A stretch of DNA of 64,000 nt from a virus, in the IMG/VR virus record IMGVR_UViG_3300037504_000618, positions 1-64,000 of that record. One strand, written 5' to 3'. The position numbers and the translations under genes were made by a program. Below, in pieces: positions 9,135-53,199 of the stretch. The notes beneath the pieces were generated by a model, which was given only the letters and a program-made list of their open reading frames with translations, was not told the DNA's origin and did not search any database. Positions within the stretch are counted from its first letter, which is position 1. Each line of letters opens with the position of its first letter.

Positions 9135-9233
9135 AAAACGCCCGTTAATGGTGATTAACGGGCGTTTTTGTTGTGATTACGCGCGTTTTCGGCGGGTTGG
9201 GACGGGATTAGGGGCATGAAAAACGTCTGTTAA
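9135..9233. repeat. Composite site A: 14-6-14 core plus third arm
   Basis: AAAACGCCCGTTAA-TGGTGA-TTAACGGGCGTTTT (9135-9168), 51-bp gap, AAAACGTCTGTTAA (9220-9233). Confidence 0.9.
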
Positions 9234-9257
9234 TATGTATGAGCACGATATAGAAAT

Positions 9258-9356
9258 TTGTACTCAAGTACAATCTTTCCCGGAAAGCAAAATTCCCTCT
9301 TGACAGTCATAGAATTCTATGTATAATATAGATAGTTGGTTACATAGAATTCTATA
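9258..9356 (+). promoter_or_regulatory. Sigma70-type promoter with paired palindromic operators
   Basis: TTGACA 9300-9305, 16-bp spacer, TATAAT 9322-9327. CATAGAATTCTAT(G/A) at 9308 and 9343. TTGTAC-N4-GTACAA at 9258. Confidence 0.85.
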
Positions 9357-9370
9357 CCAGAAAGGGAAAA

Positions 9371-9970
9371 ATGATGAGGACAGCGAAGGAAAATTACGAG
9401 ATCAGGAATAATATAGGTCAAGCAGGTGAAATGGAAGAGGAAGAAAAGTGGGAGATGGCGGAGAGCTTGTTCGCCAATCCCGAAGCTGTCCCTGAAATCA
9501 TCGGGCGTGAGGAACGTGAGGAAGAGGAAACTGAGGAATTCACCCACGTGACCAGCGAAGAGGCTGCCGAGGCCATCTTGGACTCGGGCTTCAGCCTGGA
9601 CACCACCGACAGCCAAGGCGGAAGCCAGCTTGGAGTCGGGATCTACTTAAGCCAGGCGCCCGACTACTGGGCCGGGCTACTGAACCTGCACAGCTACTTA
9701 AGAGTCACGGTGCGGATGGATCGCATCGTGACAGACGTAAACGAAGTCGAGGGATTTGGCGCTTGGTTGGAAGCCGAGGGCTGGATGAAGGATGGAGGTC
9801 CCACGGAAAAGGCAAATGAATTCATAGCCAAGTTCCAGTTGCCTGAAGAGGCAGTGGGTAGGCTTCAGGTAGAGTGGCTGGCAGAGATTGGATACGATGG
9901 ATTGTGGGATCGCGAGTTTAATAATCTCGTGATCTGGAATCTGGATGCGATCAAAAGTGTGCGTAGATAG
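9371..9970 (+). CDS. Putative ADP-ribosyltransferase (PARP-like ART fold)
   Basis: FTHVT..AAEAILDSGF, LGVGIYLS and GYDGL..NNLVIWN match the H-Y-x ART motif order. Confidence 0.6.
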   Translation: MMRTAKENYEIRNNIGQAGEMEEEEKWEMAESLFANPEAVPEIIGREEREEEETEEFTHVTSEEAAEAILDSGFSLDTTDSQGGSQLGVGIYLSQAPDYWAGLLNLHSYLRVTVRMDRIVTDVNEVEGFGAWLEAEGWMKDGGPTEKANEFIAKFQLPEEAVGRLQVEWLAEIGYDGLWDREFNNLVIWNLDAIKSVRR

Positions 9971-9988
9971 TAGAAAGGAGTTAGAGAG

Positions 9989-10441
9989 ATGGATCAGAGA
10001 GCAGAGTGGTTAGCGTATCAAGTCGGTAAAATTGGGGTAGGGGATTTAGTTTATCCTGAGAATCAGGCCAAGGCTAAAGCTAAGATGGAAGCCAAAGCGG
10101 TCAGTGATCGCGAGCGTGATATTTTCTTGTTGGGGTATCACGCAGCGTTGCTTGAGTGGGCAGAGCTCCCCCTCGCACGGGGGGACGATGATATTCTCAC
10201 GCGCGAGCGGGTGGAGAGTATTATCCAGGAGATTATGGAGCGTAATGATCTCTTGTCACTGAGCCCAGGCGTCAAGAAGATCGCCGGGCCATTTGATACC
10301 CGTGCTCAAGCTGATGCTTGGTATTGGAGCAATGAGGAGAATTATGAGCCATATCTTCGTATAGTGCATGGCTTCGATGGTAAGTATTATGTCGCCGATC
10401 CTCAAGAGGCTGATGCTAAGCGTGAGCATTTGTTTGTTTAG
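9989..10441 (+). CDS. Hypothetical protein
   Basis: AGAAAGGAG RBS, 150 aa. Confidence 0.7.
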   Translation: MDQRAEWLAYQVGKIGVGDLVYPENQAKAKAKMEAKAVSDRERDIFLLGYHAALLEWAELPLARGDDDILTRERVESIIQEIMERNDLLSLSPGVKKIAGPFDTRAQADAWYWSNEENYEPYLRIVHGFDGKYYVADPQEADAKREHLFV

Positions 10442-14915: not shown

Positions 14916-15347
14916 TTACCTCCGTTGTGCCGGTTCGCCGAGCATGGCTGTGTATAGCCATAGCTCTAACAACTGAGACGAGGCCGGCGAGATCAGACCG
15001 TCGAATGCCTCTAAGACCTCGGATAAACATTTATCGGTCCTTTGATGTTGGTGCTTTCTTTCGCGTGCCGGACTGTTTAGCAACTCCAATAGTTGATAGT
15101 AGAATGCACGTAGCTTATTCCAAGCCTCAGTGTGCTCTATCTCAACCAAGGGAATCGGTAAGAATGGGTCAGGGTTTTCATGAGGGAGCACGCGCACGAC
15201 GGCCAGCTCCTCATAAACCCCGACCATCTGGATGTTGTCTACCGGCCCACATACCGCGCCGACACGGGCCGCGATATCTAAGCTGAGGACGGTTGAAGCT
15301 GTCTTGACCGCTCGCGGTTCAGTTTTTGTTATGGTTTGTATGTTCAT
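14916..15347 (-). CDS. Hypothetical protein
   Basis: AAGGAG RBS, 143 aa. Confidence 0.6.
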   Translation of the reverse strand: MNIQTITKTEPRAVKTASTVLSLDIAARVGAVCGPVDNIQMVGVYEELAVVRVLPHENPDPFLPIPLVEIEHTEAWNKLRAFYYQLLELLNSPARERKHQHQRTDKCLSEVLEAFDGLISPASSQLLELWLYTAMLGEPAQRR

Positions 15348-15359
15348 AGTTTCTCCTTA

Positions 15360-15459
15360 TTAACGGACGTTTTTTAAGTTCGTTATTTATGTCACTAAGT
15401 CGCTACTTGCTACATTTTACGGTTAGAAATGACTGTTAAATCTTCTTAGCGGTCATTTT
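15360..15459. repeat. Composite site E (reverse arrangement)
   Basis: TTAACGGACGTTTT (15360-15373), 52-bp gap, GAAATGACTGTTAA-ATCTTC-TTAGCGGTCATTTT (15426-15459). Confidence 0.85.
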
Positions 15460-15590
15460 TTTAGTAGCTTTCGCACCTTGGCTCGCCGTTTAGCTCGTCG
15501 CCGTCGCTTTCTTCCAGACGCGGCCTTACCGCTAGCTTTAGCGGCTGCTTTTACTATAGCCTTAATCGCTTCTAGTTGTTCGTTTGCCAT
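15453..15590 (-). CDS. Small Lys/Arg/Ala-rich basic protein (45 aa)
   Basis: AGGAGGT RBS before ATG 15590: MANEQLEAIKAIVKAAAKASGKAASGRKRRRRAKRRAKVRKLLKK. Confidence 0.65.
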   Translation of the reverse strand: MANEQLEAIKAIVKAAAKASGKAASGRKRRRRAKRRAKVRKLLKK

Positions 15591-15616
15591 ATTAAACCTC
15601 CTATATTTTGAAATAT

Positions 15617-16057
15617 CTATTTTGCTTCTTGTATGACGACACCCGGTCCCCCGAAATGATAGAAGTACTGGGGGGAGTTGCGCTTTCGCCAGTTGCGCAG
15701 GATGTCGTTGGCTATATGCCGTATAGTTTCGTAGCATCGGATCCGCGCTATGGTGCGGCAGTCTATATCGCGCCATGGCCTGTCGTTATGGCAGGATAAT
15801 AGCGCGTTATAGCAGAGATCCATATACATTTCTCCGTTCAGGAGTAGGCCGGCTGCTTGGGCTGCCTTGAACATCTCGTCGTGAAGGTGGGCGTCGAGTT
15901 CATCGTAGCAGTCCGTAATCTGATTCCGTCGTCGGCTGTATTGATCATGGCAGCGCTTTATTTCCCGGCGAGTCGCGCTCGCTGGCCAGGTGAAATCCTG
16001 CCGCGTGAGTGCTGATAGCGGTTTAAGGAGTTCGATGAGCGGCTGTCTAGTCTGCAT
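15617..16057 (-). CDS. Hypothetical protein
   Basis: GGAGG RBS, overlaps the upstream gene. Confidence 0.6.
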   Translation of the reverse strand: MQTRQPLIELLKPLSALTRQDFTWPASATRREIKRCHDQYSRRRNQITDCYDELDAHLHDEMFKAAQAAGLLLNGEMYMDLCYNALLSCHNDRPWRDIDCRTIARIRCYETIRHIANDILRNWRKRNSPQYFYHFGGPGVVIQEAK

Positions 16058-16383: not shown

Positions 16384-18414
16384 TCATCGTTCCTTCTCCC
16401 AAGGTCTGGCCCAGTCGGCGGGCCAGTTGCGCACTTGCCAGCTCCGCACCTGCGTAAGCGGAAAGGGGAGCGAGCACCAGATCTCTTCCCTTCCGCTCAT
16501 AGGATTGAGGAGCGGGGCGGGCTTATTATCGTTTAATTCGCGTCGCCAGCGGCCTTCATTGACGATGAGATCCATGAGCTGTATCAGGCCGGCATCACGG
16601 CCCAGCTCGTTGAAGTGCTCCGCGAGATAATCCGTCAGGGCGCTAAAGTTGCGTTTCCAGGCGGGTGACTCGTTGCCAATGGTGCGTTGATAAGGCAGCC
16701 AGCCCAGCGGAGCCCAGACCGCGTGACGGGCAAACTTGCTCTTCCACAAGATCGGCATCCAGTTATAGAACTCGGTGCGTGTGAAGAGATCGACGTGGAT
16801 GTCGTATTGACTACTGGGGAGTTGGGGTAGCGCAGATTCGGCGAAGGAGAACAGCTCGCAGCGTGTGAGCAAGGTTCCGCCCTGACTGACCAGCAGGCCC
16901 ATTGCGGGCGCCCGGGGTTCATCGCTTTGAATGACAGGCTCACGGGCGAAGACGCAAGGCGTGCCCCATTCCTCGATATAGTGGCGGCACTTCTCGCACG
17001 TGTGCGCCTGGAAGTGCTGGCGCGTCTCGGCGTCCATTTGATAGAGCTGGAACTTGTAGAACGCGGCCAACTTCTCGCGTATTCGATGTAATCTCGTTGT
17101 TTTGTGGGACTCATTATCACTATTATGATATGGATGGGCCTTGCAGGCTGCGTCATAAAGCTTGAGATAGTCCGGGATATTATCGACATAGTAGAATCCA
17201 TTTCTACGAATTCTTTTTATGTCGATACCAAGCCGGAGAGCCTGTGACCGCATCTGATAATCCGCGTGCGGCATTACAGGATCCTGCGATCCAATATAAT
17301 TCCGGCAGATGGGAATGGCGATCCGTTCTGGGAGTGATATGTGAGGACGCGGGCAGTGGGAGCTTACCAATGGATGGCGCTCGCGTTCGACGTTGCTGAA
17401 AATGCAATCGTGACACGTAAGCCCTTCGGCTTCCACGTAGTGATTCCACGATGGAACACGTCCCTTGGCTTTCAGTGCTTTAACGACCTCTGTTACACTA
17501 TCATAACGAATGATATCCTTAACATGAGCATATAAGCAGGAGATCTGGAGTAATGGCTCCACGTCCGGCTCGCGTGAGCTGGCGTGCCAGAGTTTTAGCG
17601 CCCACTGGATCCAGCGCAAGCTATTGCGCTCGCGTGGCGTGTACTCCTGCGCGGGGTTGATGGCCCAGCGGTTCACATCCGTGAAGCGGGCCACGGCTTT
17701 GGTCAACGCCTCGATGTCGCGTGTCGTGGCCCCGTCCACGTCCACCTTGCGGATCACGGCCTCCGTCATGCCCTTCTGGAGTTTCTCGGGCACGGAGGCC
17801 AGTGCACGCGCGTGGGCCAGACCCAATACGCGCGTATTCAGCGCCTCGTGGGCCTGCTCATTGAGCTGAAGCAAGCTCAGACGCTGCGCGATGTAACCCT
17901 GGGATTTATTGACGTACTGCGCCAGCTCGCGTTGGGACCAGCCATAAGCGTCAATGAGGCCCTGATAGCCGTGGGCCTCTTCCAGGGGGTTGAGGTTGGC
18001 ACGGTCCAAGTTCTCGACGATGGCGAGGACGTGCAGATCCTCCATGGCCATCCCGCGCTTGATGATCGCGGGGACCATGACCTGCGCATCTTTGAGCGTG
18101 GCGATCTCCTGGGCGTTGAGGCCCTGCAGGCCCACGTGGGCCAGGCGACGCACGTATTGCTCCGGGCCATGATTGTCGTAGCGCTCGCCCAGGGCCAGGC
18201 CCAGCAGGGCGCGGGTGCGACGCTCCCCGGCGACCAGCTCGTAGACGGTATAGCCGTCCGCGTCCGGCTCGTCAAAGACGGTCACGGGGTTGATGAGTCC
18301 GTGGTCGTCAATGGACTGCGCCAGCTCCCAGAGCGCGTCCTCGTCGAACGCGCGTCGGGGTTGCCAACGCGAGGGCTTGATCAGCCAAGCGGGGACTTGT
18401 TCGATCTCTGTCAT
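16384..18414 (-). CDS. ParB/RepB/Spo0J-family protein with long Cys-rich C-terminus
   Basis: QPRRAFDEDALWELAQSIDDHGLINPVTV, LVAGERRTRA, ENLDRANLNPLEEA and HTH. CxxC pairs in the C-terminal half. Confidence 0.88.
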   Translation of the reverse strand: MTEIEQVPAWLIKPSRWQPRRAFDEDALWELAQSIDDHGLINPVTVFDEPDADGYTVYELVAGERRTRALLGLALGERYDNHGPEQYVRRLAHVGLQGLNAQEIATLKDAQVMVPAIIKRGMAMEDLHVLAIVENLDRANLNPLEEAHGYQGLIDAYGWSQRELAQYVNKSQGYIAQRLSLLQLNEQAHEALNTRVLGLAHARALASVPEKLQKGMTEAVIRKVDVDGATTRDIEALTKAVARFTDVNRWAINPAQEYTPRERNSLRWIQWALKLWHASSREPDVEPLLQISCLYAHVKDIIRYDSVTEVVKALKAKGRVPSWNHYVEAEGLTCHDCIFSNVERERHPLVSSHCPRPHISLPERIAIPICRNYIGSQDPVMPHADYQMRSQALRLGIDIKRIRRNGFYYVDNIPDYLKLYDAACKAHPYHNSDNESHKTTRLHRIREKLAAFYKFQLYQMDAETRQHFQAHTCEKCRHYIEEWGTPCVFAREPVIQSDEPRAPAMGLLVSQGGTLLTRCELFSFAESALPQLPSSQYDIHVDLFTRTEFYNWMPILWKSKFARHAVWAPLGWLPYQRTIGNESPAWKRNFSALTDYLAEHFNELGRDAGLIQLMDLIVNEGRWRRELNDNKPAPLLNPMSGREEIWCSLPFPLTQVRSWQVRNWPADWARPWEKER

Positions 18415-19226: not shown

Positions 19227-19453
19227 CGTGTTTGCCTCCTTAGCCCCTTGAGGAAGCGGGCTTTTAAGCTTTTGCGGGTCATTTGATTGTAGGCGCTGAG
19301 GACGTTCAGCGCTCTAATGAGCTGCGCTTGGAGCGCGATGACGTAGGCCAAGATGCCCAGGGCTTCCTCGCGGGTGAGGCTGTCGCGCTCACCGTCGAGG
19401 AGCGCGTCAAAGAGGGCGTCGATTTCGTTTTTGGCTAGCATCAGTCGCTCCAA
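19223..19453 (-). CDS. Hypothetical protein
   Basis: Overlaps the recombinase stop codon. Start uncertain (19453 or 19441). Confidence 0.5.
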   Translation of the reverse strand: MERLMLAKNEIDALFDALLDGERDSLTREEALGILAYVIALQAQLIRALNVLSAYNQMTRKSLKARFLKGLRRQTR

Positions 19454-41315: not shown

Positions 41316-41329
41316 TGACCATTAAAATC

Positions 41330-42381: not shown

Positions 42382-42382
42382 G

Positions 42383-42939: not shown

Positions 42940-42973
42940 GCAATCAGCCCTCACTTTTAAAACTCGTGTAATT

Positions 42974-43010: not shown

Positions 43011-43040
43011 GAGTATCTTATAAACCCAAGGAGGTTGTAA

Positions 43041-43262
43041 ATGTCGGAGCAAATCATTATTTTGAACGAGGAGAGCAGCAGTCCGGTGGTGGTGAGCCGT
43101 TACGTGTTGCACGGTGGCGAGCGTTTGGGGATTCGGTTGTACCATCGTTCGGAGGACGGGGAGTTACTCGCCACGCGGAGCGGCGTGGACCTGTTGATCG
43201 AGGGCGGTCTGGCTGCCCAGGCCGTTGAGGCGTTACAAACGTTGTTAAAGGGCGCGTCCTAG
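43041..43262 (+). CDS. PC4/p15-like ssDNA-binding protein, paralog 1
   Basis: AAGGAGG RBS. Closely similar to the next ORF. Confidence 0.7.
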   Translation: MSEQIIILNEESSSPVVVSRYVLHGGERLGIRLYHRSEDGELLATRSGVDLLIEGGLAAQAVEALQTLLKGAS

Positions 43263-43330
43263 TACGCGCGACATCAATCAGGGGGACCGAGGACAATCCC
43301 GGTCCCCCAACGAAACCAAGGAGGTTTTCA

Positions 43331-43555
43331 ATGTCGGAGCAGAAGGTCGTTTTGAATGGTGAGAGCAGTAGTCCTATTGTGGTCAGTCGCAGTGTGTATC
43401 GCGGGGTGGAGCGTTTGGACATCCGCCGCTATTACTATGCAACGGGGGATGGGGAATTGCGCCCCACCAAAAAGGGCGTGAGCCTGCCCATTGAGAGTGG
43501 TTTAGCGGCCCAGGCCGTGCAAGTCTTGCAGGCCATGTTGAACGGAAGTGACTGA
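43331..43555 (+). CDS. PC4/p15-like ssDNA-binding protein, paralog 2
   Basis: YRGVERLDIRRYY..GELRPTKKGVSL PC4 signature. Confidence 0.85.
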   Translation: MSEQKVVLNGESSSPIVVSRSVYRGVERLDIRRYYYATGDGELRPTKKGVSLPIESGLAAQAVQVLQAMLNGSD

Positions 43556-43787
43556 GATGTCTACAGCATACGCGCTTAATCAGAAAGCACAAGTAACACG
43601 TGAGGATTTGCAGGATATTTGGAGACGACTACGCGGTAAGCCTTTGGCACAGGAGCACATAGGCGGAATGCTACGCTTCGCAAATGGACTGTTGCGGGAT
43701 TGCAAGCGACGTCATCCACACAGCGTTCAATGTATTGCGGAAGTCGAATTTGGTGGCGTGGACTTTCGTTTTTGCCGTCCAATGTAG
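43548..43787 (+). CDS. Hypothetical protein
   Basis: Overlaps the upstream stop codon. Confidence 0.5.
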   Translation: MTEMSTAYALNQKAQVTREDLQDIWRRLRGKPLAQEHIGGMLRFANGLLRDCKRRHPHSVQCIAEVEFGGVDFRFCRPM

Positions 43788-43869
43788 ATGCGCTTTAGTA
43801 CGCGCGTAATCAAGGGGGACCTAGTGTCATCGCGGTCCCCCTCACAAACACCAGAAAGGAGATGTTGAA

Positions 43870-44457
43870 ATGTTTGAGGAAGTTAAGCAGTTACGGGAGA
43901 AGGCAGCCCAGATCGTGCGGTATCTATCCCCGTGGGAGTTGGCCCCGGTGAATCCCCGGGTTGACAACCTGGTGCAGCTCGTCAATACTCAGGTGGAGGG
44001 GCCGGCGATCATGCTGCGGTTGCGCAAAGGACGCATCAGCTTCTCCGGGCAGTATCCGCACCCGTATTACCCCTCCGACCCGGCCGAGCGGGCCTACATC
44101 ACGGTGAGCGCGAGCCGGTCCCCGCAGTCCATCGCCGGGGACGTGCAGCGGCGGCTTCTGCCGAGGTATCAGAAAAGTTACGCGGCGGCCGTCGCGCGGC
44201 AGGAGGCGGACGAGGCGTATGAGCGGCGCCGGTGCGACGCCTTGGAGATGCTGGCGGCGATCAGCCAGATGCCGATCTCCCATCACAACGACCGTGAGCC
44301 GCAGATCTATCACTATGCTCATCCTCCGGGGACCCTGGCCCGGATCAAGATCCGCACCTATTCCCTGGACGATACTATGCAGGTGGACTTAGACCTCGAC
44401 GGTATCCCCTTCGACGTGGCCAAGCAACTGTGTCGGGTTTTAAGTACGATTTCCTAA
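43870..44457 (+). CDS. Hypothetical protein
   Basis: AGAAAGGAG RBS, 195 aa. Confidence 0.75.
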   Translation: MFEEVKQLREKAAQIVRYLSPWELAPVNPRVDNLVQLVNTQVEGPAIMLRLRKGRISFSGQYPHPYYPSDPAERAYITVSASRSPQSIAGDVQRRLLPRYQKSYAAAVARQEADEAYERRRCDALEMLAAISQMPISHHNDREPQIYHYAHPPGTLARIKIRTYSLDDTMQVDLDLDGIPFDVAKQLCRVLSTIS

Positions 44458-44467
44458 TCTCCAAATA

Positions 44468-44497
44468 AAAAGGGGGGCGAAATTTCGCCCCCCTTTT
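44468..44497. terminator. Perfect 30-bp palindrome, bidirectional terminator
   Basis: AAAAGGGGGGCGAAA|TTTCGCCCCCCTTTT. Confidence 0.8.
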
Positions 44498-44506
44498 CTT
44501 ATAATT

Positions 44507-44543
44507 TCGTGATTGACAACAAAAGTTGTCTGTGAGAGAGTGA
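44507..44543 (+). promoter_or_regulatory. Repeated promoter/operator P4
   Basis: TCGTGA-TTGACA-ACAAAAGTTGTCTGTGA-GAGAGT-GA. Confidence 0.85.
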
Positions 44544-44570
44544 GAGCAACTTAATCAAACAGAAAGGAGC

Positions 44571-45278
44571 TTGAAGATGGAGCAGACAACTTTTTTACAG
44601 GTAGAGAGCGGGTATCGGGTGGCGGACTTTCCGGCGTCCGAGCGTCCGGTCAATCGGCTGCGGGAGGTGGGGCCGCGTGCGGTCTCCAACGCGGAGCTGC
44701 TGGCGTGCATCTTGCAATCGAGGGAGGCCCTGGATCAGGCGAACGCGCTGTTGGTGGAGATGGGGGGACTGGCGGGCCTGGTGCACGCGGACGCGGTGAT
44801 GTTCGAGGCCATTCGGGGGATCGGACCGGCGCAGGCCGCGCGGCTGTACGCGGCAGTGGAACTGGGGCGGCGTCTCAAGGCTGAGGCCCCGTTGGAGGTA
44901 CAGATCCGCGCCCCGGCGGACGCGGCCAACTTCCTATTCCCGTTGATCAGCATGGAGGAACAGGAGAACTTCGTGGTACTGTACCTCAACACGCGGAACC
45001 AGGTGATGACCCACGAGGTCCTCTATCGAGGGACCCTAAATACTTCCGTCGTGCGGGCTGCGGAAGTCTTTAGGGGCGCAATTCGGCGCAACAGCGCGAC
45101 CATCGTCGTGGCGCACAATCACCCCTCGGGTAACCCGGACCCCTCGGCGGAGGACATCGGGCTGACGCGCCGCTTGGTGGAGGCGGGACGCTTGGTGGAG
45201 GTGGAGGTGCTGGATCACCTGGTCATCGGGCACGGGCGGTATGTGAGTTTAAAGGAGCGGCAGTTGGGGTTTGATTAA
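44571..45278 (+). CDS. radC: RadC-family JAB domain protein
   Basis: ERP.NRL..LSNAELLA, HhH motif GIGPAQA, AHNHPSGNPDPSAED and LDHLVIG. Confidence 0.93.
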   Translation: MKMEQTTFLQVESGYRVADFPASERPVNRLREVGPRAVSNAELLACILQSREALDQANALLVEMGGLAGLVHADAVMFEAIRGIGPAQAARLYAAVELGRRLKAEAPLEVQIRAPADAANFLFPLISMEEQENFVVLYLNTRNQVMTHEVLYRGTLNTSVVRAAEVFRGAIRRNSATIVVAHNHPSGNPDPSAEDIGLTRRLVEAGRLVEVEVLDHLVIGHGRYVSLKERQLGFD

Positions 45279-45373
45279 CGGACGTTTTTCAGCGCATTAA
45301 ACGGGGCAAAAACCGCAGTTTTAGCCCCGTTTCCCCTTAATAACTTCCGTTAATTTGACTTATCAGACGTTTT
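45275..45373. repeat. Composite site D (reverse arrangement)
   Basis: TTAACGGACGTTTT (45275-45288, contains the radC stop), 51-bp gap, ATAACTTCCGTTAA-TTTGAC-TTATCAGACGTTTT (45340-45373). Confidence 0.85.
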
Positions 45374-45471
45374 CTTCTATAATGAAGGTAATAGGTTAGC
45401 CTGTCAGTAGATATAAATTCCGGGGCGATCCGCTTAGGCGGGTCGCCCCTTTTCGTTTTCTGAGGTACTTA

Positions 45472-46233
45472 ATGACTGAAGACAGTGCAAAAGGGAAAAG
45501 GGACATCCACAGCCTCGATGATTTGATCCTCGACGACCACAACGCCAACCAGGGGACCGAGCGGGGGATGTGGTCATTGCAGGAGAGCCTCATTCGCTTT
45601 GGCGTGGGGCGCGGGGTCCTGGTGGACCGCCTGGGGCAGGTGATCGGCGGCAATAAGACCATCGAGACCCTGGCGAAGCTGAATCCCGACGTTAAGGTCG
45701 TGGTGGTCCCCAGCGACGGGGACACGTTGGTCGTCACGCAGCGCGTGGACCTGGACCGCGAGACGGACCCGGCAGCGCGCGAGCTGGCGGTTGCGGATAA
45801 CCGCGTGGCCGAGCTCAACCTGGCCTGGGACGCGCAGCAGATCGTCCAGGGCGTGGAGGATGGGCTGGACTTGGCGGCCTTTTTCCATCAGGATGAGATC
45901 CGCCGCCTGGGGCTGGAGGCCGATGAGGAGGAGGATGAGGACCTCGACGAAGAGCCCGACTACGACCCCGTGCCGGAGATGGAGATTCAGCCCTTCGAGC
46001 ACTATGATTATGTGATGGTGGTTTTCCGAAATACCTGGGACTGGGCCAAGGCTGTGGATTTCCTGGGTATCGAGGATAGGGCTTTCGCGTTTACGTCGAG
46101 TAAGGGGAAGCCCCATCGTAAAGTGGGTTTATGCCGCGTGCTGGATGGCGCGCGGTTCTTAGAACTTTTACAGAACAAATGCGAATCGTCATCCCCAGCA
46201 GAAAGCGCGTCAACGCCTGCCGCGACGTCCTGA
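45472..46233 (+). CDS. ParB/Srx-fold N-terminal protein of the type found beside DNA-modification genes
   Basis: DDHNANQG..SLIRFGVGRGVLVD..VIGGN..LAVADNRVAELNLAWD, followed by an acidic linker. Confidence 0.7.
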   Translation: MTEDSAKGKRDIHSLDDLILDDHNANQGTERGMWSLQESLIRFGVGRGVLVDRLGQVIGGNKTIETLAKLNPDVKVVVVPSDGDTLVVTQRVDLDRETDPAARELAVADNRVAELNLAWDAQQIVQGVEDGLDLAAFFHQDEIRRLGLEADEEEDEDLDEEPDYDPVPEMEIQPFEHYDYVMVVFRNTWDWAKAVDFLGIEDRAFAFTSSKGKPHRKVGLCRVLDGARFLELLQNKCESSSPAESASTPAATS

Positions 46234-46916
46234 AGCTTTTTCCGGGGGCGCTGGTTGTGGTGCACCAGGAGGAAGTGGAAGACTACGGCGTGCTGGACGC
46301 TGAGTTACTTGCGCACCCGCCGGAGGTGGCCGGGATCGCGCCGTTGAAGAATTGGATCTTGGACAACGTGCCGGATGAGACGGTCTTTATCGTGGACGAC
46401 GACATCAGCATGCTCAAGGCCATGGGCGGCCGACCTCGGAAGTCGGCGCCGATCCGTGATCCAGCGGTGATCCGTCAGGTCGTCGAGAACGCCGCGCAGG
46501 CGGCCCGGGTGCTGGGCACGCCGGTCTTCGGCTTCAATCAGAACGGCGGCGACGTGCGGAAGTTCAGCAATCAGGACCCTGTCGGGATGAGCGGGTGGGT
46601 CGGGGGCGCGATGGGCATCATCGGGCGCGAGCTGCGCTATGACTCCAATCTCAAGCTCCGAGCCGACATTGACTTCTGCTTGCAGGCGCAGCTTCGCTTT
46701 CGCTGCATCTACTCTGACCTGCGCTTTGCCTTCGTCGAGCAGCGCTTCAACAACACGGGCGGTAACGCCCACATGCGCAGCGCGGAGCGGAATCGGCGCG
46801 AGCTGGCGTATCTCAAGCAGAAGTGGGGGCGCTGGATCAGCCTCCGCGAGGGCAAGGGGACCGTGATGATCAAGGTCCACGTCAAGCGGCGGCAAAATCT
46901 GGTGATAATTTCGTGA
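46179..46916 (+). CDS. TAGT/GREB1-like GT-A glycosyltransferase
   Basis: MRIVIPSRKR, EEVEDY, KNWILD..FIVDDDI, DIDFCLQ, NTGGN and LKQKWG. ATG at 46179. Confidence 0.75.
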   Translation: MRIVIPSRKRVNACRDVLKLFPGALVVVHQEEVEDYGVLDAELLAHPPEVAGIAPLKNWILDNVPDETVFIVDDDISMLKAMGGRPRKSAPIRDPAVIRQVVENAAQAARVLGTPVFGFNQNGGDVRKFSNQDPVGMSGWVGGAMGIIGRELRYDSNLKLRADIDFCLQAQLRFRCIYSDLRFAFVEQRFNNTGGNAHMRSAERNRRELAYLKQKWGRWISLREGKGTVMIKVHVKRRQNLVIIS

Positions 46917-46920
46917 GCTT

Positions 46921-46957
46921 TCGTGCTTGACAACCAAAGTTTCCTGTGAGAGAGTGA
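46921..46957 (+). promoter_or_regulatory. Repeated promoter/operator P5
   Basis: TCGTGC-TTGACA-ACCAAAGTTTCCTGTGA-GAGAGT-GA. Confidence 0.8.
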
Positions 46958-46989
46958 GAAAAGTACAAACTATCTCATAGGAGGTTGCA

Positions 46990-47622
46990 ATGGAAGGGAG
47001 TTATCGGCCATACACACAAAACGGTTACCCGTTGGGGGACGTGATCAGCGCTCTGCAAAAGGACATCCGGCGGGGCAACGAGGAACAGGCGTTGTACTGG
47101 TGCTTGGAGCTGTTGCCGCGATACGAGATGTATCTCTGGCGGCGGCTGATGGTGATCTGTAATGAGGACATCGGCCTCGGTAACCCGGATATCCTAGTCC
47201 AGATCCCGATGCTGCGGGCGCAGTATTTCGAGTTTCGTGGGTTGGGCAAGAATGGAACGTGTCGGCTGATTTTGGCTAATGCCATTATGCTGATGTGCCG
47301 GTCGCCCAAGGCGCGCACGGCGGATCACTTTCAACGGGTGGTCACGCAGCAATGGGTGGAGGACAGTCGGGCCAAGCAGACCCGCCCTATCCCGGACTAT
47401 GCTTTCGACAAACACACTAATAAAGGGAAAACGTTGAAGCGGGGCTTTGATCATTGGTTGGACGTAGGCTGTCAGTTGGACGACCCCGCCGAGGTTGAGG
47501 ATCCGTATCAGGAGCGCGCGGAGGCACTGTGGCGCAGTGGGAAAAACGACGCGCCGGAGTGGGGCAAACGCCGGAAGCGCAAGGATGATGATGTCACGCA
47601 GTTGAATCTGTTTAATAGTTAG
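46990..47622 (+). CDS. Stand-alone RarA/MgsA C-terminal-like domain
   Basis: DVISALQKDIRRGNEEQALYW, WRRLMVICNEDIGLG, SPK and IPDYAFDKHT. No Walker motifs. Confidence 0.8.
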   Translation: MEGSYRPYTQNGYPLGDVISALQKDIRRGNEEQALYWCLELLPRYEMYLWRRLMVICNEDIGLGNPDILVQIPMLRAQYFEFRGLGKNGTCRLILANAIMLMCRSPKARTADHFQRVVTQQWVEDSRAKQTRPIPDYAFDKHTNKGKTLKRGFDHWLDVGCQLDDPAEVEDPYQERAEALWRSGKNDAPEWGKRRKRKDDDVTQLNLFNS

Positions 47623-47647
47623 CTAGTCCGTCAGTGGCAGTGATCCC

Positions 47648-47687
47648 GGGACGATTCACCTCTAAGGTGAATCGTCCCCTTTTTTTA
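47648..47687 (+). terminator. Intrinsic terminator
   Basis: GGGACGATTCACCT-cta-AGGTGAATCGTCCC followed by a T run. Confidence 0.85.
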
Positions 47688-47704
47688 TCTTATAGGAGGT
47701 TGCG

Positions 47705-48115
47705 TTGAAGAAAAGATTGGGAATATCGTTGTTAGTTGCCGTTTTGATGTCGGTTATGGCCGTGGGCGCGGTAGCAGCGCAAGGAGAGCCTCCTATCGCC
47801 GGGCCGGATAATCCCACGGATTTGCTGGCCGTGTTGGGGTGGCTGGCTGCCGGTGGCGCAGGGCCGGCAATTGCCTTCGCGTTGAATAAGCTGCCGTGGT
47901 TCCGGGCTATCGAAAACGACAATGTTAAGTTGGGCATTGTGGTTACCTGCGTCGTGATCGTGCCGTTGACGGCGAAGGTCGCGATTGACTTGGTGCCTCC
48001 GCACATTTGGCCTCTCGTTCAGCCCTACTGGGCCACGGCGGTGGGGGCGTTGCTCCTCGGCTGGCCTGCTTCGCAGATCACGTTCGAGACGTTTATTAAG
48101 CCGAAGAAGGGATAG
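47705..48115 (+). CDS. Holin-like membrane protein
   Basis: AGGAGG RBS, 3-4 hydrophobic helices and a basic C-terminus. Confidence 0.55.
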   Translation: MKKRLGISLLVAVLMSVMAVGAVAAQGEPPIAGPDNPTDLLAVLGWLAAGGAGPAIAFALNKLPWFRAIENDNVKLGIVVTCVVIVPLTAKVAIDLVPPHIWPLVQPYWATAVGALLLGWPASQITFETFIKPKKG

Positions 48116-48117
48116 GT

Positions 48118-48516
48118 GTGGAAGCTGGCGGCGGTTTCGATACGTTTATAGAAATCGCCAACGGGATAACGGCTCTGGCCCTCTCGTTGGCCTGTCTCTA
48201 TGCTTTTTTTAAAGGGCTCGTTATCCCTGCGCCAGTCGTGGAGGCCATTATTCAAAAGACTGTTGCTGCCGTCTTGAAGGAGACGCGCGAAGATTATGAG
48301 CAAATGCTCATGGAGATGATGGCTGAGATCACGGCGCGCACCCTGAAGGCCATCGACGAGATGGAGCGTGAGCAAATGACGGCGATGCAGCGCAGTTTGA
48401 AGGAGCTCCGCGAGTTCCTGGAACGCGAGATGGATCGTGCGGAATGGCGTGAGCTGCGCCGTCAGACCAGCCCGTTAGATACAGGGATACTTGAAAGGAG
48501 CGCTAAAGATGACTAA
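48118..48516 (+). CDS. Single-TM coiled-coil protein (lysis accessory/holin-like)
   Basis: One N-terminal TM helix followed by a coiled coil. Confidence 0.5.
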   Translation: MEAGGGFDTFIEIANGITALALSLACLYAFFKGLVIPAPVVEAIIQKTVAAVLKETREDYEQMLMEMMAEITARTLKAIDEMEREQMTAMQRSLKELREFLEREMDRAEWRELRRQTSPLDTGILERSAKDD

Positions 48517-49231
48517 AAATCCGGCTACATTAGCAACGCAAGTTTCCAGCGCTATTGGGACTTTGGACGCTGTACGTGATGGACTTTTTCAACTGGCTAC
48601 GGAAGGGGCGGAAGAGCAAATTCGCCGTCCTCCCGCATTCTGGCAACGCGACCGGCTGCGTTGGGCGTCACATCAGTACGCGCGGCAGTGTGGCGGCTGG
48701 CATACGATTGAGAGCGCCGGTTGCCTGGTCTGCTGCGTCTCCATGCTGGCGGCCTGGGCGGGATATGACACGGATCCCAAACGCACGGCGCAGGGCTTGG
48801 ACGAGGCCAAGGCTTTTGTAGGGGACAATCTGAGTCACCCTTCGCGCGTTGAGGAAGTTTTCCACACGCTGCGCTGGCATCATAATGCCGACCTTCTGGG
48901 GAAATACAGCTCCTACATTAACTGGCGCAAGGCGGCGGTGGATCTGGAGGCCCTGCAAGCATTACTCAGGGAGTATCCGGTGACGGTCGAGGTGGATATG
49001 TCGCCGGGAGGCGCGGTGCAGCAGCATTTCGTTCTAGCGTATGAGTATGTGCCTGATCCTGACGGGGGACTCTATGACGATCTCCTGATCGCGGACCCCT
49101 GGACCGGGGGCTATGGCTCCATCCTGGATTATTTCCATCCGGCGTGGTTGAGCTGGTGTGAGCGCGTCTCGATTACGCGCGTACAGCGGGCGGTCACCGG
49201 CGCGCGGGTGTGGGAGGTCCTACCGTTCTGA
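48509..49231 (+). CDS. C39-like papain-fold peptidase, candidate endolysin
   Basis: WQRD..W..SAGCLVCCVSM, QHFVL and IADP (Cys-His-Asp). GAAAGGAG RBS. Confidence 0.7.
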   Translation: MTKNPATLATQVSSAIGTLDAVRDGLFQLATEGAEEQIRRPPAFWQRDRLRWASHQYARQCGGWHTIESAGCLVCCVSMLAAWAGYDTDPKRTAQGLDEAKAFVGDNLSHPSRVEEVFHTLRWHHNADLLGKYSSYINWRKAAVDLEALQALLREYPVTVEVDMSPGGAVQQHFVLAYEYVPDPDGGLYDDLLIADPWTGGYGSILDYFHPAWLSWCERVSITRVQRAVTGARVWEVLPF

Positions 49232-49452
49232 TGAGCAGGCTCAGGCTAACACGCTTACAGCGTGAGGAAGAGAAAGCACAGGAGTGGTTGGGCGTCCTCA
49301 AGAAACTGGAGGCTCAGGGCCACGTCGAGCCGTGGCGCGCGGAGATTATCCGCCTGACCGCCGATATCTATCTGGGTTCAGAGCGCGTGGCTTATCTGCT
49401 GCGCGCGCTTGATTGGATCCAGATGCATGGAGTGGCTGACGCATGTACATAA
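49231..49452 (+). CDS. Hypothetical protein
   Basis: TGATG coupling. Confidence 0.55.
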   Translation: MSRLRLTRLQREEEKAQEWLGVLKKLEAQGHVEPWRAEIIRLTADIYLGSERVAYLLRALDWIQMHGVADACT

Positions 49453-50630
49453 CAGTTTTTGGGCTTGGACGCGCCGGAGCAGTGACTGCGGCACTATTAG
49501 CTCATCTTGGCCATAATGTCTATGGGGTGGATACAGATTTAGACAAGTTAGCCCTGTTGCGCTTGGGGCGCATTCCATTCTATGAGCCAGATCTTTCGCA
49601 GTATGTCTATGAGGGATTGGACACCGGTCGCCTTAGCATTACGACGGATGGAGAAGATGCTGTAAGACACAGCGAGTTTTCCTTGATCTGTGTGGGAACG
49701 CCCAACTGTGATGGAGGTGTAGAGTTATCTGCCGTCTACAATGTTTTGGAGACCATCGGCAAGGCATTGCGGGAGCACACTACGTATCACGTGGTAGTTT
49801 TGCGTAGCACGGTGCCCATTCCTGAATTGGATAAGCTGCTTTTGCACCTAGAGATAAAATCCCGACTTGAAGTAGGACAAGACTTCGGTTTTTGTGTCAA
49901 TCCTGAATTTCTCCGTGAGGGTAGCGCCATTAAGGATTTCCTTAATCCGCCCTTTGTGTTGATTGGGCAGGAGAATAAGCGTGCCGGAAAACGCCTGCGT
50001 GAACTTTACAATGTCATTATGGCTCCTCAGATTATGACCGATTATCGCACCGCTATGTTGGTGAAGTACGTGTCTAACGCCTGGCATGCGTTGAAGATCG
50101 TCTTTGCTAATGAAATCGGGGGGATTGCTAACGCGCTACATATCGCGCCCCAGGAAGTGATGGGTGTTGTTACACAGGATACCATGCTCAATGTTTCCCC
50201 GGCTTATATGCGTCCAGGGGGGCCGTATGGCGGATCCTGCTTGCCTAAAGATCTTACCGCCTTACTGCGCATGACGATGGTGCAATCCCCCGTTTTGGCC
50301 GCGATTCCCCAGAGCAATGCTCTGCACATCTTGGACATTATTGAGCGCATTTTAGCGAGCGGGCGGCAACGCATTGGCGTTGTGGGGCTCAGTTTCAAGC
50401 CGGACACCGACGACTTACGCGGCAGCCCTTGGGCCGCCGTCGTCGATGCTTTGCTCAAGGCCGGTCGTGATGTGAAGATCTATGATCCTGATGTCTCCCA
50501 TGTTATGGCCGGACGCTATCGTGACATGATGGTCGAGGAGTTTGATGATCTGGAGGCTTGGGCCGAACAGCTATTCTACGCCAAGCCGGAGCTGGTACCC
50601 AATTCAACACAGGAGGAAGTTGGTGACTAG
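49443..50630 (+). CDS. UDP-glucose/GDP-mannose 6-dehydrogenase family (AlgD-like)
   Basis: GLGRAG, CVGTP, RSTVP, NPEFLREG, KYVSNAWHALK, LNVSPAYMRPG, GGSCLPKD and FKPDTDDLRGSP. Confidence 0.93.
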   Translation: MYITVFGLGRAGAVTAALLAHLGHNVYGVDTDLDKLALLRLGRIPFYEPDLSQYVYEGLDTGRLSITTDGEDAVRHSEFSLICVGTPNCDGGVELSAVYNVLETIGKALREHTTYHVVVLRSTVPIPELDKLLLHLEIKSRLEVGQDFGFCVNPEFLREGSAIKDFLNPPFVLIGQENKRAGKRLRELYNVIMAPQIMTDYRTAMLVKYVSNAWHALKIVFANEIGGIANALHIAPQEVMGVVTQDTMLNVSPAYMRPGGPYGGSCLPKDLTALLRMTMVQSPVLAAIPQSNALHILDIIERILASGRQRIGVVGLSFKPDTDDLRGSPWAAVVDALLKAGRDVKIYDPDVSHVMAGRYRDMMVEEFDDLEAWAEQLFYAKPELVPNSTQEEVGD

Positions 50631-50937
50631 TAATCAGGAAGAAATAAGGCGGTTGCGAGTAGCTTCGCTACACTTACGCGGTTTGACCCCTTTAGAAATT
50701 AGCTCTGCCCTCGGACCGGATATGCCGGCTGACGTCGAGACGGTCTGTGAGGATATTGCTTATCTGGAACGCATTTGGACAACAGAGGTCAAGCCGACCC
50801 AGCGTCACTTGGCACGGATGCTCGCGGAAACCCGTGAGGCCCGACGTGTAGCTTGGGCTAAGGCGGATATGAGTTTGGTATTGGATTTAATCAAGCAAGA
50901 GGCGAAGCTATTGAGGATAGACACGCTTCTATTATAA
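50623..50937 (+). CDS. HTH protein
   Basis: RRLRVASLHLRGLTPLEISSAL..VETVCEDI. AGGAGG RBS before GTG. Confidence 0.6.
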   Translation: MTSNQEEIRRLRVASLHLRGLTPLEISSALGPDMPADVETVCEDIAYLERIWTTEVKPTQRHLARMLAETREARRVAWAKADMSLVLDLIKQEAKLLRIDTLLL

Positions 50938-50971
50938 GAAACGTCTGCTAATGGAAATTAACGGCTGTTTT
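50938..50971. repeat. Site G: 14-6-14 core, third arm degenerate
   Basis: GAAACGTCTGCTAA-TGGAAA-TTAACGGCTGTTTT. Only AAAACG remains 53 bp downstream (51025). Confidence 0.75.
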
Positions 50972-51062
50972 ATTTCGCGTAATCATGCGATATCGAGGGG
51001 GAAAAGCGGAACCTCTCCCGGAATAAAACGCACAATTGTTACATATGGGGAGTTGAGGGGTT

Positions 51063-51656
51063 GTGGAGGATGATCGGAGCACGGCATTTCCGGCCAACGA
51101 AAAGACGCCGGGGCAGCGCAAGAGTCGCACTGCCTATCAGAAGTTTAGCGACCAGTTGGAGTCTTTTCCGTGGATGGAAGAGTATTTGGAGCTACGTCAA
51201 ATGGAACTGCGAGGGCGCAAGCTGGACTGGCGCAAGGCGGTCTACGTCGCGTGGGCCAGCATGCCTACGCCCAGACGCCAGCCGGAGACGCAGGATGAGC
51301 TGGCGACGCAGGTCTTGGGGCTTAGCTCCTATCGCACGATCAGCCGGTGGAAGAAGAAGTACCCGGAGCTGGAGGAGCTGGTGGCCGAGCGGCAGGCCGC
51401 GCCGTTGCTCAAGTATCGGGCGGACGTGTTCGAGGCGCTGGGCCAGGTGGCCCGTATGCCTGACCCGAAGGCCCATCGGGACCGCAAGCTTTTCTTGGAG
51501 ATGTCGGGGGACTATAGCCCCCGCAAGGCCGTCGAGGTGACCGGTGAAGATGGTGAAGCTGTTCAACAGGTGGTGGCTTTTGACCTTAGCGATATCCCTT
51601 CTGACATCCTACGGCATATCGCCAACGGCAACGCAGATCACGAGCCTGAAGACTGA
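51063..51656 (+). CDS. terS: Terminase small subunit (HTH)
   Basis: TQDELATQVLGLSSYRTISRWKK and VEVTGEDG tail. Upstream of TerL. Confidence 0.75.
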   Translation: MEDDRSTAFPANEKTPGQRKSRTAYQKFSDQLESFPWMEEYLELRQMELRGRKLDWRKAVYVAWASMPTPRRQPETQDELATQVLGLSSYRTISRWKKKYPELEELVAERQAAPLLKYRADVFEALGQVARMPDPKAHRDRKLFLEMSGDYSPRKAVEVTGEDGEAVQQVVAFDLSDIPSDILRHIANGNADHEPED

Positions 51657-53103
51657 AGCGCGCCGCGAGTTGGCCCGCCGGCACCTCGTGGACTTCACCT
51701 GTTGGACGTATCCGCAGTACGTGGACGACCCGGCACACTGGCTGATCGCGGAGCATCTGGAGAAGGTGCTCACGGGCCAGATCAAGCGGCTGATGATCTT
51801 CGCCCCTCCGCAGCATGGGAAGTCGGAGCTGGTCTCTATTCGTTTCCCGGCCTTTTGGCTAGGGCACCGGCCCGATGACCCCGTGATCTTGGCTTCTTAT
51901 GGAGCCAGCCTAGCGGAGCGGCATAGCAGTGAGGCACGGGCGGCGGTGGAGAGTCAGGAATATCAGGATATCTTCACCGAGACGCGCACGCGGCAGGACA
52001 GCCGATCCAAGCAACTCTGGCGTATCCAGGATCATCGCGGGGGGCTATTAGCCGCCGGTGTAGGTGGCCCTATCACGGGCCATGGGGCTGTGCTGGGCAT
52101 CATTGACGACCCGTTTGAGAACTGGCGGCAGGCGCAGTCCCTCACGGTGCGCAATCACGTCTGGGATTGGTGGCGGGGTACATTTAGGACGCGGATCTGG
52201 GAGGACGGCGCGATTATCCTGGTGATGACGCGCTGGCATGAGGATGATCTCGCGGGGCGGCTCTTATCGGAGCAGGGCGACCGCTGGACCGTGCTCCGGC
52301 TCCCGGCGATTGCTGAGACGCAGGAGGATCGCGATAAGAGCAATGCGTTGCTAGGACTTCCGACAGGGGAGCCCGACCCGCTAGGCCGTGCGCCGGGCGA
52401 GGCGCTGTGTCCGCAGCGCTTCAGCACGGAGGCGCTCACGGTCATTCGCTACGATGTGGGCAGCATGGTCTGGTATGCGGAATACGTGGGCGTGCCCCGG
52501 TCGCCGGAGGGGAACAAGTTCAAGCGGTCGTGGTTTGAGGGACGGATGGTTGAGGCGGTGCCCTCCGAAGGGCGGCGGGTGCGCTATTGGGACAAGGGCG
52601 GGACGCAGGGCGGCGGCGATTATACCGCCGGGGTGTTGATGGTGCTGCACGAGGGGCGGTTCTTCGTCGCGGACGTTGTCCATGGGCAATGGTCTGACTA
52701 CGAACGCGATAAGACGATCAAGGCCACGGCTGAATTGGATGGCGTGGAGACCGTGACGTGGGTCGAGCAGGAACCGGGCAGTGGTGGGAAGGATTCAACA
52801 AACGCCACGATCCGCAAGCTGGCGGGCTTCAACGTGCACGCGCATCGGCCCAGTGGGGATAAGGAAGTCCGAGCCAGCCCCTTCGCGGCGCAGTGCGAAG
52901 CGGGGAACGTGTTCCTCAAGCGCGCGCACTGGAACGCGCAGTATCTCGCGGAGCTGACAGCCTTCCCCAACGGCGCGCACGATGACCAGGTGGACGCCAG
53001 CAGCGGCGCGTTTAACCGGCTGGCCCCAGCGGGGGGACAGTCTTATTTGGATTGGATGAAACAGCGCGTTGCGAAGGAACAGGAAGCGCAACAAGGGAAT
53101 TAA
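51544..53103 (+). CDS. terL: Terminase large subunit
   Basis: PPQHGKSE, IIDDP, MTRWHEDDLAG and HDDQVDA. The true start may lie slightly downstream. Confidence 0.95.
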   Translation: MKMVKLFNRWWLLTLAISLLTSYGISPTATQITSLKTEARRELARRHLVDFTCWTYPQYVDDPAHWLIAEHLEKVLTGQIKRLMIFAPPQHGKSELVSIRFPAFWLGHRPDDPVILASYGASLAERHSSEARAAVESQEYQDIFTETRTRQDSRSKQLWRIQDHRGGLLAAGVGGPITGHGAVLGIIDDPFENWRQAQSLTVRNHVWDWWRGTFRTRIWEDGAIILVMTRWHEDDLAGRLLSEQGDRWTVLRLPAIAETQEDRDKSNALLGLPTGEPDPLGRAPGEALCPQRFSTEALTVIRYDVGSMVWYAEYVGVPRSPEGNKFKRSWFEGRMVEAVPSEGRRVRYWDKGGTQGGGDYTAGVLMVLHEGRFFVADVVHGQWSDYERDKTIKATAELDGVETVTWVEQEPGSGGKDSTNATIRKLAGFNVHAHRPSGDKEVRASPFAAQCEAGNVFLKRAHWNAQYLAELTAFPNGAHDDQVDASSGAFNRLAPAGGQSYLDWMKQRVAKEQEAQQGN

Positions 53104-53199
53104 CGGATGTTTTTATGAGAGTTTACGGAGGGTTTTTGGGCGTGAAAACGCGCGTAATCAGGGGAGAAATAACCGATAATGCCTATTAACGGCTATTTT
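53100..53199. repeat. Composite site F (reverse arrangement)
   Basis: TTAACGGATGTTTT (53100-53113, contains the terL stop), 52-bp gap, GAAATAACCGATAA-TGCCTA-TTAACGGCTATTTT (53166-53199). Confidence 0.88.

Follow-up and report, generated by a model that had tools for sequence, protein, structure and literature searches.

The stretch of viral DNA considered here (the window) comprises bases 1-64000 of the 72,037-bp uncultured virus record IMGVR_UViG_3300037504_000618 (G000), which is about 70% complete, and it is punctuated by ~100-bp elements assembled from copies of a single 15-nt half-site. Seven such elements, A to G, lie inside the window, all of them at the coordinates proposed in an earlier note on this DNA, and grouping of the half-sites places an eighth, H, just outside it. 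All are intergenic, occupying 8 of the ~31 gaps of at least 60 nt, and in our judgment they represent a new dif-like three-arm element at the borders of phage gene modules. The surrounding genes include those for a ParM-like protein, a DnaA_N initiator, AAA/MoxR-like, SNF2, PAPS-reductase/DUF3440 (IbrA-like), GNAT and ParB_N (IbrB-like) proteins, RadC, TerL and the portal, all labels that Pfam or PHROGs supported. Neither database supported the labels ART, VWA, ASCH, terS and parR of the earlier note: PHROGs returned nothing for the presumed ART, VWA, terS and parR or for the open reading frame (ORF) between two tandem recombinase genes, and only a family of unknown function for the presumed ASCH.

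When the elements are oriented alike, each reads P1, a 4-nt gap, P2 (P1 inverted), an interior of 51-52 nt and finally P3, which runs in the direction of P1. P1 and P2 together are termed the core and P3 the third arm, and the centre of the core measures 6 bp when the arms are counted as ending at TTAA. The half-site ATTAACGGNCGTTTT (also written ATTAACRGNCGTTTT; P1 consensus across the eight elements of the record, AAAACGNCYGTTAAT) matched at 22 places when up to 3 mismatches were allowed, compared with a mean of 3.23 and a maximum of 10 in 100 shuffles; over the whole record, at no more than 1 mismatch, there were 11 matches against 0 for a reversed control. The 4-nt gap and the 51-52 nt interior are present in 8/8 elements of the record. 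A set of 50 elements, drawn from 9 non-redundant genomes, has interiors of 52 nt in 41 cases and of 51 nt in 5, and TAA-N6-TTA with inverted arms is found in 50/50. The nearly invariant positions are C8, G10, T12, A13 and A14 of P1 and T21, T22, A23 and G27 of P2, with A13, T22 and A23 each kept in 50/50. In the same set P1 and P2 share one consensus and P3 is the best-kept arm, while the related contigs G006 and G007 retain only the inner 8 nt of P1. The centre is strand-asymmetric, of the form nGGy (79 G vs 50 C, p=0.013), with a polarity that matches the side on which P3 stands.

The interiors differ in sequence and draw on a few motifs, namely the palindromic box GATTACGCGCGTAATC, four GGTAGAC repeats and G+C-rich terminator hairpins. 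A, B and F have in common an interior box GATTACGCGCGTTTTC (3 exact copies) and are 74-82% identical over the whole element. The interior is fixed in length and free in sequence, and we conclude that the spacing is under strong selection. The elements are read as conserved tripartite DNA sites between gene blocks, with the arms as putative protein-binding sites. As a separate observation, near-identical interiors occur at non-corresponding places in two distant genomes (G007 2993-3093, 9208-9308 and 39670-39772; G002 15279-15379), consisting of four GGTAGAC repeats followed by AGGGGTTTAAGG, and the same interior is inverted in G002 3917-3998.

Isolate collections contain no close relative of this phage: megablast comparison of 20-kb pieces with phages and plasmids found 0 matches, and the nearest isolated phage by TerL is 43% identical. 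By searching with TerL and with the element pattern, element-bearing uncultured relatives were retrieved, including G006 (58.9 kb, 91% complete, 10 elements), G010 (55 kb, 7 elements), G004 (43 kb, 7 elements) and G007 (40.9 kb, 8 elements), as well as G002, G003, G011, G012, G013 and G014 with 1-3 elements each; the same architecture is present in at least 10 related uncultured phage contigs. A TerL search of genome contigs found one Anaerolineae metagenome-assembled genome (MAG) with a TerL relative and one element, and in the TerL-matching MAG contig L139 no element adjoins terL. The corresponding search of metagenome contigs yielded a single 5-kb contig (L154), portal and initiator queries found no related loci among viral contigs, and a collection scan with the bare 15-mer half-site returned mainly single chance matches. 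When an 81-nt span was searched in 401 genomes of the MAG's class (Anaerolineae), the sole match was that MAG itself; given its absence from all the others, the element belongs to phages, and a host repeat is ruled out. The phages form an uncultured, presumably temperate group, probably with hosts in the Chloroflexota.

Since P1 and P2 form an inverted pair, a reading at the RNA level has to be weighed, in which the P1/P2 hairpin would serve as a bidirectional intrinsic terminator or another structured RNA. The palindromes of the record do have A-runs and T-runs on both sides, and RNA folding is clearly better than that of shuffled sequences for A (z -3.7), which stands at the end of the tail operon, and for C (-7.7) and D (-4.3). 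However, the result is marginal or absent for B (-2.4), G (-1.4), E (-0.05) and F (-0.5), and no hairpin kept by compensatory change and followed by a U-run was found. Across 34 elements, P1-P2 identity is 9.35 vs 9.46 in permuted pairs (p=0.75) and P2-P3 identity 10.97 vs 11.22; for the record alone, P1-P2 likeness reaches p=0.026. In addition, P1 of G006 and G007 is 8 nt only and lacks an A-run, ordinary G+C-rich terminators stand beside B and within several interiors, and F and H sit within late operons. Rfam returned no match to the elements, and a terminator scan of 37-54 kb placed 0/4 cores among 19 terminator-like sites. The arms vary independently, so that constraint acts on each arm and not on pairing, and this lack of covariation, together with the inconsistent folds and the empty Rfam search, argues for protein sites rather than hairpins, leaving a terminator role extremely improbable. 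We conclude that arms constrained singly at a strongly selected spacing are the signature of a fixed-geometry protein-DNA complex.

A second line of evidence comes from recent mosaic boundaries, of which ~23 were located; in 5 of them the distance to the TTAAT end of an arm is at most 7 nt (two of these at one site), so that copies of the element bound insertions, deletions and replacements between close relatives. By a rough estimate, arm ends make up ~2% of intergenic DNA. G012 and G013 are essentially identical save three blocks. One of these, in which they are ~68% alike, stops at the only element that they carry; the last difference is at 10374, just before P2, and to the right of the core the two are identical. 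Over 4367 nt, the same block of G012 matches G007 at 90.4% identity, a likeness that ends 1-2 nt past P2 in the central 6 bp; beyond that centre the two are unrelated, and P1 is missing from G007 at this place. G014 and G006 become alike (97%) from 1 nt beyond the outer end of P3. Further boundaries were obtained by comparing 36.5-56.5 kb with assembled Logan contigs of public sequencing runs (X1-X4), of which X2-X4 contain relatives at 85-95%, the boundary counts being a sample (30 longest of 776 pieces, 24 of 496 loose ends). A contig of run X4 (record 28) becomes alike from 50950, within the core of G, and one of run X3 (record 22) exactly at 53099, the first base of P3 of F, whereas the joints in run X1 near C (37484 to 37937; 37597 to 37829) resolved no arm-end event. 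Such exact joints support breakage and joining of DNA at the arms, and the elements look like recombination points. The earlier note had proposed to test for breakpoints in the 6-bp spacers; such a position agrees with one junction 1-2 nt into the centre and with one in the core of G, but two are at the P3 end and most are elsewhere, and module replacement unrelated to site positions, which it had named as contrary evidence, was in part observed.

Candidate enzymes for such events are encoded nearby (Table 1). The three Xer-like tyrosine recombinases of the record have XerC, XerD and XerA as best families, with scores below the curated cut-offs (171.8/335, 187.5/329.6 and 170.9/220). Three are also encoded by G006 and 2 each by G004, G007 and G010, and the catalytic R, HxxR, H and Y are intact in 12/12. 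In clustering by BLAST and phmmer, tyrosine recombinases are the only family beyond TerL, portal and tail proteins to be found in 5/5 large genomes, and besides them no small DNA-binding protein was recovered from all element-bearing genomes. Two orthologous recombinase groups, Rec1 and Rec3, could be defined, and an element stands just past the 3' end of Rec3 in G000, G006, G007 and G012 (degenerate in G012). Two known classes of site were rejected as candidates: integron attC sites, because the recombinases score far below integron-integrase cut-offs, orientations are mixed and the interiors are not hairpins, and partition centromeres, because the 91%-complete G006 has no ParB-like gene.

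Table 1. Three-arm elements and Xer-like recombinase genes of the record (positions in bp; orientation + means core before third arm)
Feature	Position	Orientation or strand	Parts	Surroundings and remarks
Element A	9135-9234	+	P1 9135-9149; P2 9154-9168; box GATTACGCGCGTTTTC 9175-9190; 51-nt interior; P3 9220-9234	between tail-fibre-like gene (ends 9121) and 9371 operon
Element E	15359-15459	-	P3 15359-15373; 52-nt interior; P2 15426-15440; P1 15445-15459	P3 directly adjoins ribosome-binding site of minus-strand gene 14916-15347; outer arm P1 contains stop of gene 15453-15776
Xer-like tyrosine recombinase, group Rec1	19441-20517	-		45-51% identical to G004 and G006 proteins
Second Xer-like tyrosine recombinase	20845-21843	-		tandem with Rec1; 103-aa ORF between
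Third Xer-like tyrosine recombinase, group Rec3	25714-26715	+		38-39% identical to G006 and G007 proteins
Element B	26765-26865	+	P1 26765-26779; P2 26784-26798; box 26805-26820; P3 26851-26865	50 nt past recombinase gene 25714-26715, after ordinary terminator hairpin 26731-26757
Element C	37425-37525	-	P3 37425-37439; P2 37492-37506; P1 37511-37525	interior with G+C-rich hairpin
Element D	45274-45373	-	P3 45274-45288; P2 45340-45354; P1 45359-45373	hairpin in interior; radC stop TAA 45276-45278 inside ATTAAC of P3; core overlaps promoter-like TTGACT-17-TATAAT (45355-45383)
Element G	50938-51037	+	P1 50938-50952; P2 50957-50971	third arm degenerate; upstream of presumed terS
Element F	53099-53199	-	P3 53099-53113; box 53144-53159; weak P2 53166-53180; P1 53185-53199	between terL and portal; terL stop TAA 53101-53103 inside ATTAAC of P3
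Element H	64082-64182 (of the record, outside the window)	+		eighth element; before tape-measure gene

The explanation placed first, and held tentatively, is that the three-arm elements are sites for the phage's own Xer-like tyrosine recombinases, and that gene blocks are broken and joined at the arm ends. It takes this place because of the dif-like core, the 15-bp arms of monomer size, the fixed accessory-arm geometry, the universal presence of multiple recombinases and the exact junctions. In the proposed mechanism, a dimer would occupy the core and a further protomer P3, the interior being bent, perhaps by a second factor on the interior boxes. Breakage and joining would take place at an arm's TTAAT end, so that blocks of different descent meet there, and exchange would be open to each element with the corresponding one of a co-resident relative, or with its own copy in a dimeric replicon. 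As the earlier note had anticipated, the centres are heterospecific (0 pairs sharing a central 6-mer within genomes of 8, 7, 10, 8 and 7 sites); since all of them differ within a genome, the elements should not recombine with each other there. What the sequences show is a conserved architecture, arms without hairpin covariation, recombinase genes in the same genomes and exact junctions; that the recombinases are the proteins that bind, and that the junctions originate in site-specific recombination, we infer.

Several observations weigh against this explanation. At two of the exact junctions the joint is at P3's outer end, a place with no partner arm, and neither these nor the P1-less G007 would be explained by a clean core-by-core exchange. 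Most mosaic boundaries lie elsewhere: of the BLAST segment ends over all pairs, only 20/667 come within 12 nt of a landmark of an element, the G007/G012 block has its left end inside a gene, and the other 5 ends of the G012/G013 blocks are not at elements. Gene-order breaks are no more frequent at element gaps (71/92 vs 536/709, p=0.8), although this test is weak and deserves little weight either way, being saturated (~76% of adjacencies count as broken everywhere) and based on crude ORF calling. Corresponding centres drift at a roughly neutral rate, G010 and G002 sharing 2/3, and the centre after terL in G010 and G003 matching at 3/6 positions. Interior motifs are common to non-corresponding elements, within and between genomes, which also fits copying by homologous recombination or transposition. 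Finally, the link between recombinases and sites is one of co-occurrence, temperate phages usually carry an integrase anyway, and the binder could instead be a cI-like or a ParB-like protein, encoded in the record at 23954-24343 and 16384-18414, respectively, and each found in 4/5 large genomes.

The last point leads to an alternative that is possible though rather unlikely, namely that the elements are operator arrays of a global phage regulator whose dispersed repeats also seed homologous recombination, in the manner of the PeSL cassettes of T4-type phages. The arms do behave as independent protein sites; the core of D overlaps the best promoter-like site of 37-54 kb, with the -35 box in the centre and P1 between -35 and -10; and P3 often adjoins the ribosome-binding site of the next gene. 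The same reading would accommodate interiors that carry the palindromic box, heptamer repeats and ordinary terminator hairpins, the occurrence of the cI-like HTH protein noted above, and the existence of a second repeat family (D1 promoters, described below) that also bounds a deletion. The core comes first in 23/34 elements with co-directional flanking genes (among 54 elements, core first in 23, P3 first in 11 and ambiguous in 20, counts that are not independent). However, only 1/8 elements of the record overlaps a recognisable promoter, late operons contain elements too (F separates terL from portal, and H precedes the tape-measure gene), and for operators it would be unusual to keep three sites in rigid geometry, with a spacer of 51-52 bp in every copy. 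At the G014/G006 crossover one partner has no element, and G007 lacks P1, so that plain homology between elements cannot explain the exactness of the junctions. Still less probable is a miniature mobile element, an ~81-bp P2-interior-P3 unit with 15-bp inverted ends that is or was mobile, P1 being target-like or a leftover. P2 and P3 are indeed inverted 15-mers that terminate a unit of 81-82 bp, and junctions fall exactly at both of its ends. The whole-element identity of A, B and F, the variable presence of elements between relatives and the recurrence of interior types at non-corresponding places in both orientations (39/52 between G007_3012 and G002_15279, with G002_3917 inverted) would likewise be expected of it. 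On the other side, no flanking direct repeats were seen, by eye only, at the 8 copies of the record, and Pfam found no transposase family among 60 of its ORFs, with ~37 small ORFs outside the scan. Genomes with portals only ~55% identical agree in several positions and orientations, and interiors that have diverged beyond recognition are still 51-52 nt long, which indicates selection on geometry.

The layout of the elements along the genome bears on a further claim of the earlier note, that inward-facing heterospecific pairs (A/E, B/C and G/F) are a selected arrangement for cassette exchange by double site-specific crossover. The geometry of the window is as described: the three pairs have their cores outside and their third arms inside, G with a degenerate third arm, all central 6-mers differ, and the stops of radC, terL and the 15453 gene fall inside arms. 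D was said to have no partner and still has none; H, found since, lies outside the window, so that both remain unpaired. The orientations along the record read + - + - - + - +. At least three adjacent +/- pairs occur in 8/128 strings of 7 (p=0.06) and, with H included, in 37/256 random strings of 8 (p=0.14), so that the pattern does not exceed chance, and it is not conserved in G004 (-+-----), G006 (--+--+++-+), G007 (++-+--++) or G010 (+---+++).

Individual positions are kept to differing degrees. An A-like element follows the tail-fibre homologue in the same orientation in G000, G006 and G007 (3/3), and an element after a 174-aa gene has one orientation in G004, G006 and G007 (3/3) and is missing in G000. 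A site follows terL in G000, G001-G003 and G010, and its orientation in G001-G003 is the reverse of that in G000; G004, G006 and G007 have none, terL and portal being directly adjacent there. Conserved positions and orientations span deep divergence. The TerL of the record is 71% identical to that of G004 and G006 and 26% to that of G007, and its portal, which has a fused Mu F-like domain, is 29% identical to that of G004 and 54-55% to those of G006 and G007. Judged by these identities, TerL and portal (51544-55330) have different histories, whether or not an element lies between them.

Cassette exchange could account for this discordance, for the lack of homologues of the B-C block and for an A-E block of which only the initiator is common to relatives. 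Against it, the discordance exists also where no element separates the two genes (G004, G006, G007), the sites flanking terS-terL are absent or inverted in relatives, and exchange would require matching sites in both partners rather than inward orientation. No module replaced with both ends in cores was seen among the relatives. Nor is the exchanged unit exactly terS-terL, as had been proposed, since in G004 terS is 31% identical while terL is 71% identical. A selected pairing is therefore very unlikely; the mechanism does not involve inward-facing pairs, and a cassette-exchange geometry finds no support. What is partly supported of the earlier proposal is the recombination-site reading itself, with its tyrosine-recombinase-type core, three Xer-like recombinases and exact arm-end junctions, but without the pair geometry.

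Apart from these questions, a number of features of the blocks between the elements can be recorded. The B-C block (26875-37337), for which no related contig has a detectable homologue, contains HTH_17, AAA ATPase, SNF2, PAPS-reductase/DUF3440, GNAT and ParB_N genes. Directly upstream of C, at 37338-37414, two tandem 38-nt units each contain two AACGGTTAGCCGTT palindromes, and contigs of run X1 break and vary at these repeats. A promoter region with a TTGTAC-N4-GTACAA palindrome and TTGACA is shared by 9251-9305 and 27221-27275, downstream of A and of the first ORF after B, respectively. Beside D, the promoter-like site of its core is the strongest of 37-54 kb and is followed within ~40 nt by a strong terminator hairpin (45422-45449) with a T-run, which suggests a transcript of ~60-70 nt; the segment 45395-45459 is 78% alike to a place in G002.

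In the region 39722-50630 the gene content (amidoligase, class-I glutamine amidotransferase, ParB-like, RadC, TET-associated glycosyltransferase family, MgsA_C-like and UDP-glucose/GDP-mannose dehydrogenase) is of the kind usual for sugar metabolism or for hypermodification of DNA bases. Five 73-nt promoter-like copies of the D1 repeat, each ahead of a gene or small gene set, lie at 39646-39718, 41324-41396, 42968-43040, 44501-44573 and 46915-46987, with the cassette sequence TCGTGATTGACAAC...GTTG.C.GTG.GAGAGTGA, and copies are present in G004 and G002 too. A contig of run X4 joins 41260 to 44503, the genes between two D1 copies being deleted, a boundary at a non-element repeat that looks, by analogy, like PeSL-type shuffling. 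Between the glutamine amidotransferase gene and a D1 promoter lies a 40-nt hairpin, CCTTCCGGGAAGC...GCTTCCCGGAAGG (41277-41316), whose summed contig depth in run X1 is ~1600 vs ~60 for its neighbours; it is a widespread short repeat, found in many contigs with different flanks in all four runs. A box of the type TAGTACGCGCG(T/A)AATC occurs outside the elements at 43253-43283 and 43789-43819, upstream of gene 43870.

Among described systems, the closest are the dif (pdif) modules of Acinetobacter plasmids, in which sites of 11-6-11 build with 6-bp spacers border modules and exchange needs matching spacers (PMC13141974). Likeness extends to the many short recombinase-type sites per replicon, the 6-bp spacer flanked by TAA/TTA, the location at module borders, spacers that differ between sites and modules that differ between related replicons (PMC13141974). 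The phage elements have the two inverted ~11-bp arms around a 6-8 bp centre that characterise Xer/dif sites, but not the distinct XerC and XerD arms or the alternating sites. In pdif, the arms are two sequences (XerC and XerD sides), the recombinases belong to the host, sites must alternate, some pairs share spacers and recombine, and no third arm 52 bp away is described, whereas here both core arms follow one half-site, the candidate recombinases are phage-encoded, orientations in the relatives do not alternate, and no two sites of one genome share a centre.

The nearest phage precedent for repeat-bounded module shuffling is provided by the PeSL mobile regulatory cassettes of T4-type phages, which combine a promoter and a stem-loop and are reported to act through homology (PMC2839356, PMC4122927). 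Both are repeated intergenic phage motifs found at the ends of inserted, deleted or replaced blocks. By contrast with the cassettes, with a promoter and stem-loop in every copy, the three-arm elements have no constant promoter or hairpin (a promoter only at D, folds not better than shuffled in 3-4/7) and have three protein-type arms at fixed spacing; the closer PeSL analogue in the record is the D1 promoter family.

Two further kinds of site invite comparison. FRT with its third symmetry element and the Tn4430 TnpI site have a palindromic core bound by two protomers, with extra motif copies to one side, and they resemble the phage elements in combining a core with an accessory arm that gives the site polarity; the phage arm differs in being 51-52 bp away rather than adjacent, and there are 8-10 loci per genome rather than one. 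P1 C1 operators, L5 stoperators and RK2 KorB sites, the dispersed operators of global regulators, are similar in that an asymmetric ~15-bp site is scattered singly and as incomplete palindromes, in replicons with plasmid-type partition genes. They differ in having no fixed three-site geometry, and only one phage element overlaps a promoter; such operators are not known as exact mosaic junctions.

Whether phage mosaicism arises by illegitimate recombination followed by selection or by recombination at special boundary sequences is an old question. A conserved boundary element, exact natural junctions and candidate enzymes nearby make it testable at the bench with a few clones. If the recombinases act on the arms, the incompatible sites would amount to a natural toolkit of orthogonal recombination sites, and if a regulator binds the arms instead, a new genome-wide control circuit would be indicated in a phage group without a cultured member. 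The fullest form of the recombinase explanation, a rather unlikely possibility, is that the phage group has its own multi-site Xer-like system, in which 8-10 three-armed sites with incompatible centres would partition each genome into blocks, and 2-3 recombinases cutting at the TTAAT ends of the arms would allow blocks to be traded between co-resident relatives without scrambling the genome. Such a system would be a phage counterpart of the dif modules of Acinetobacter with a new kind of site, built from a core, a distant third arm and a cargo interior of fixed length.

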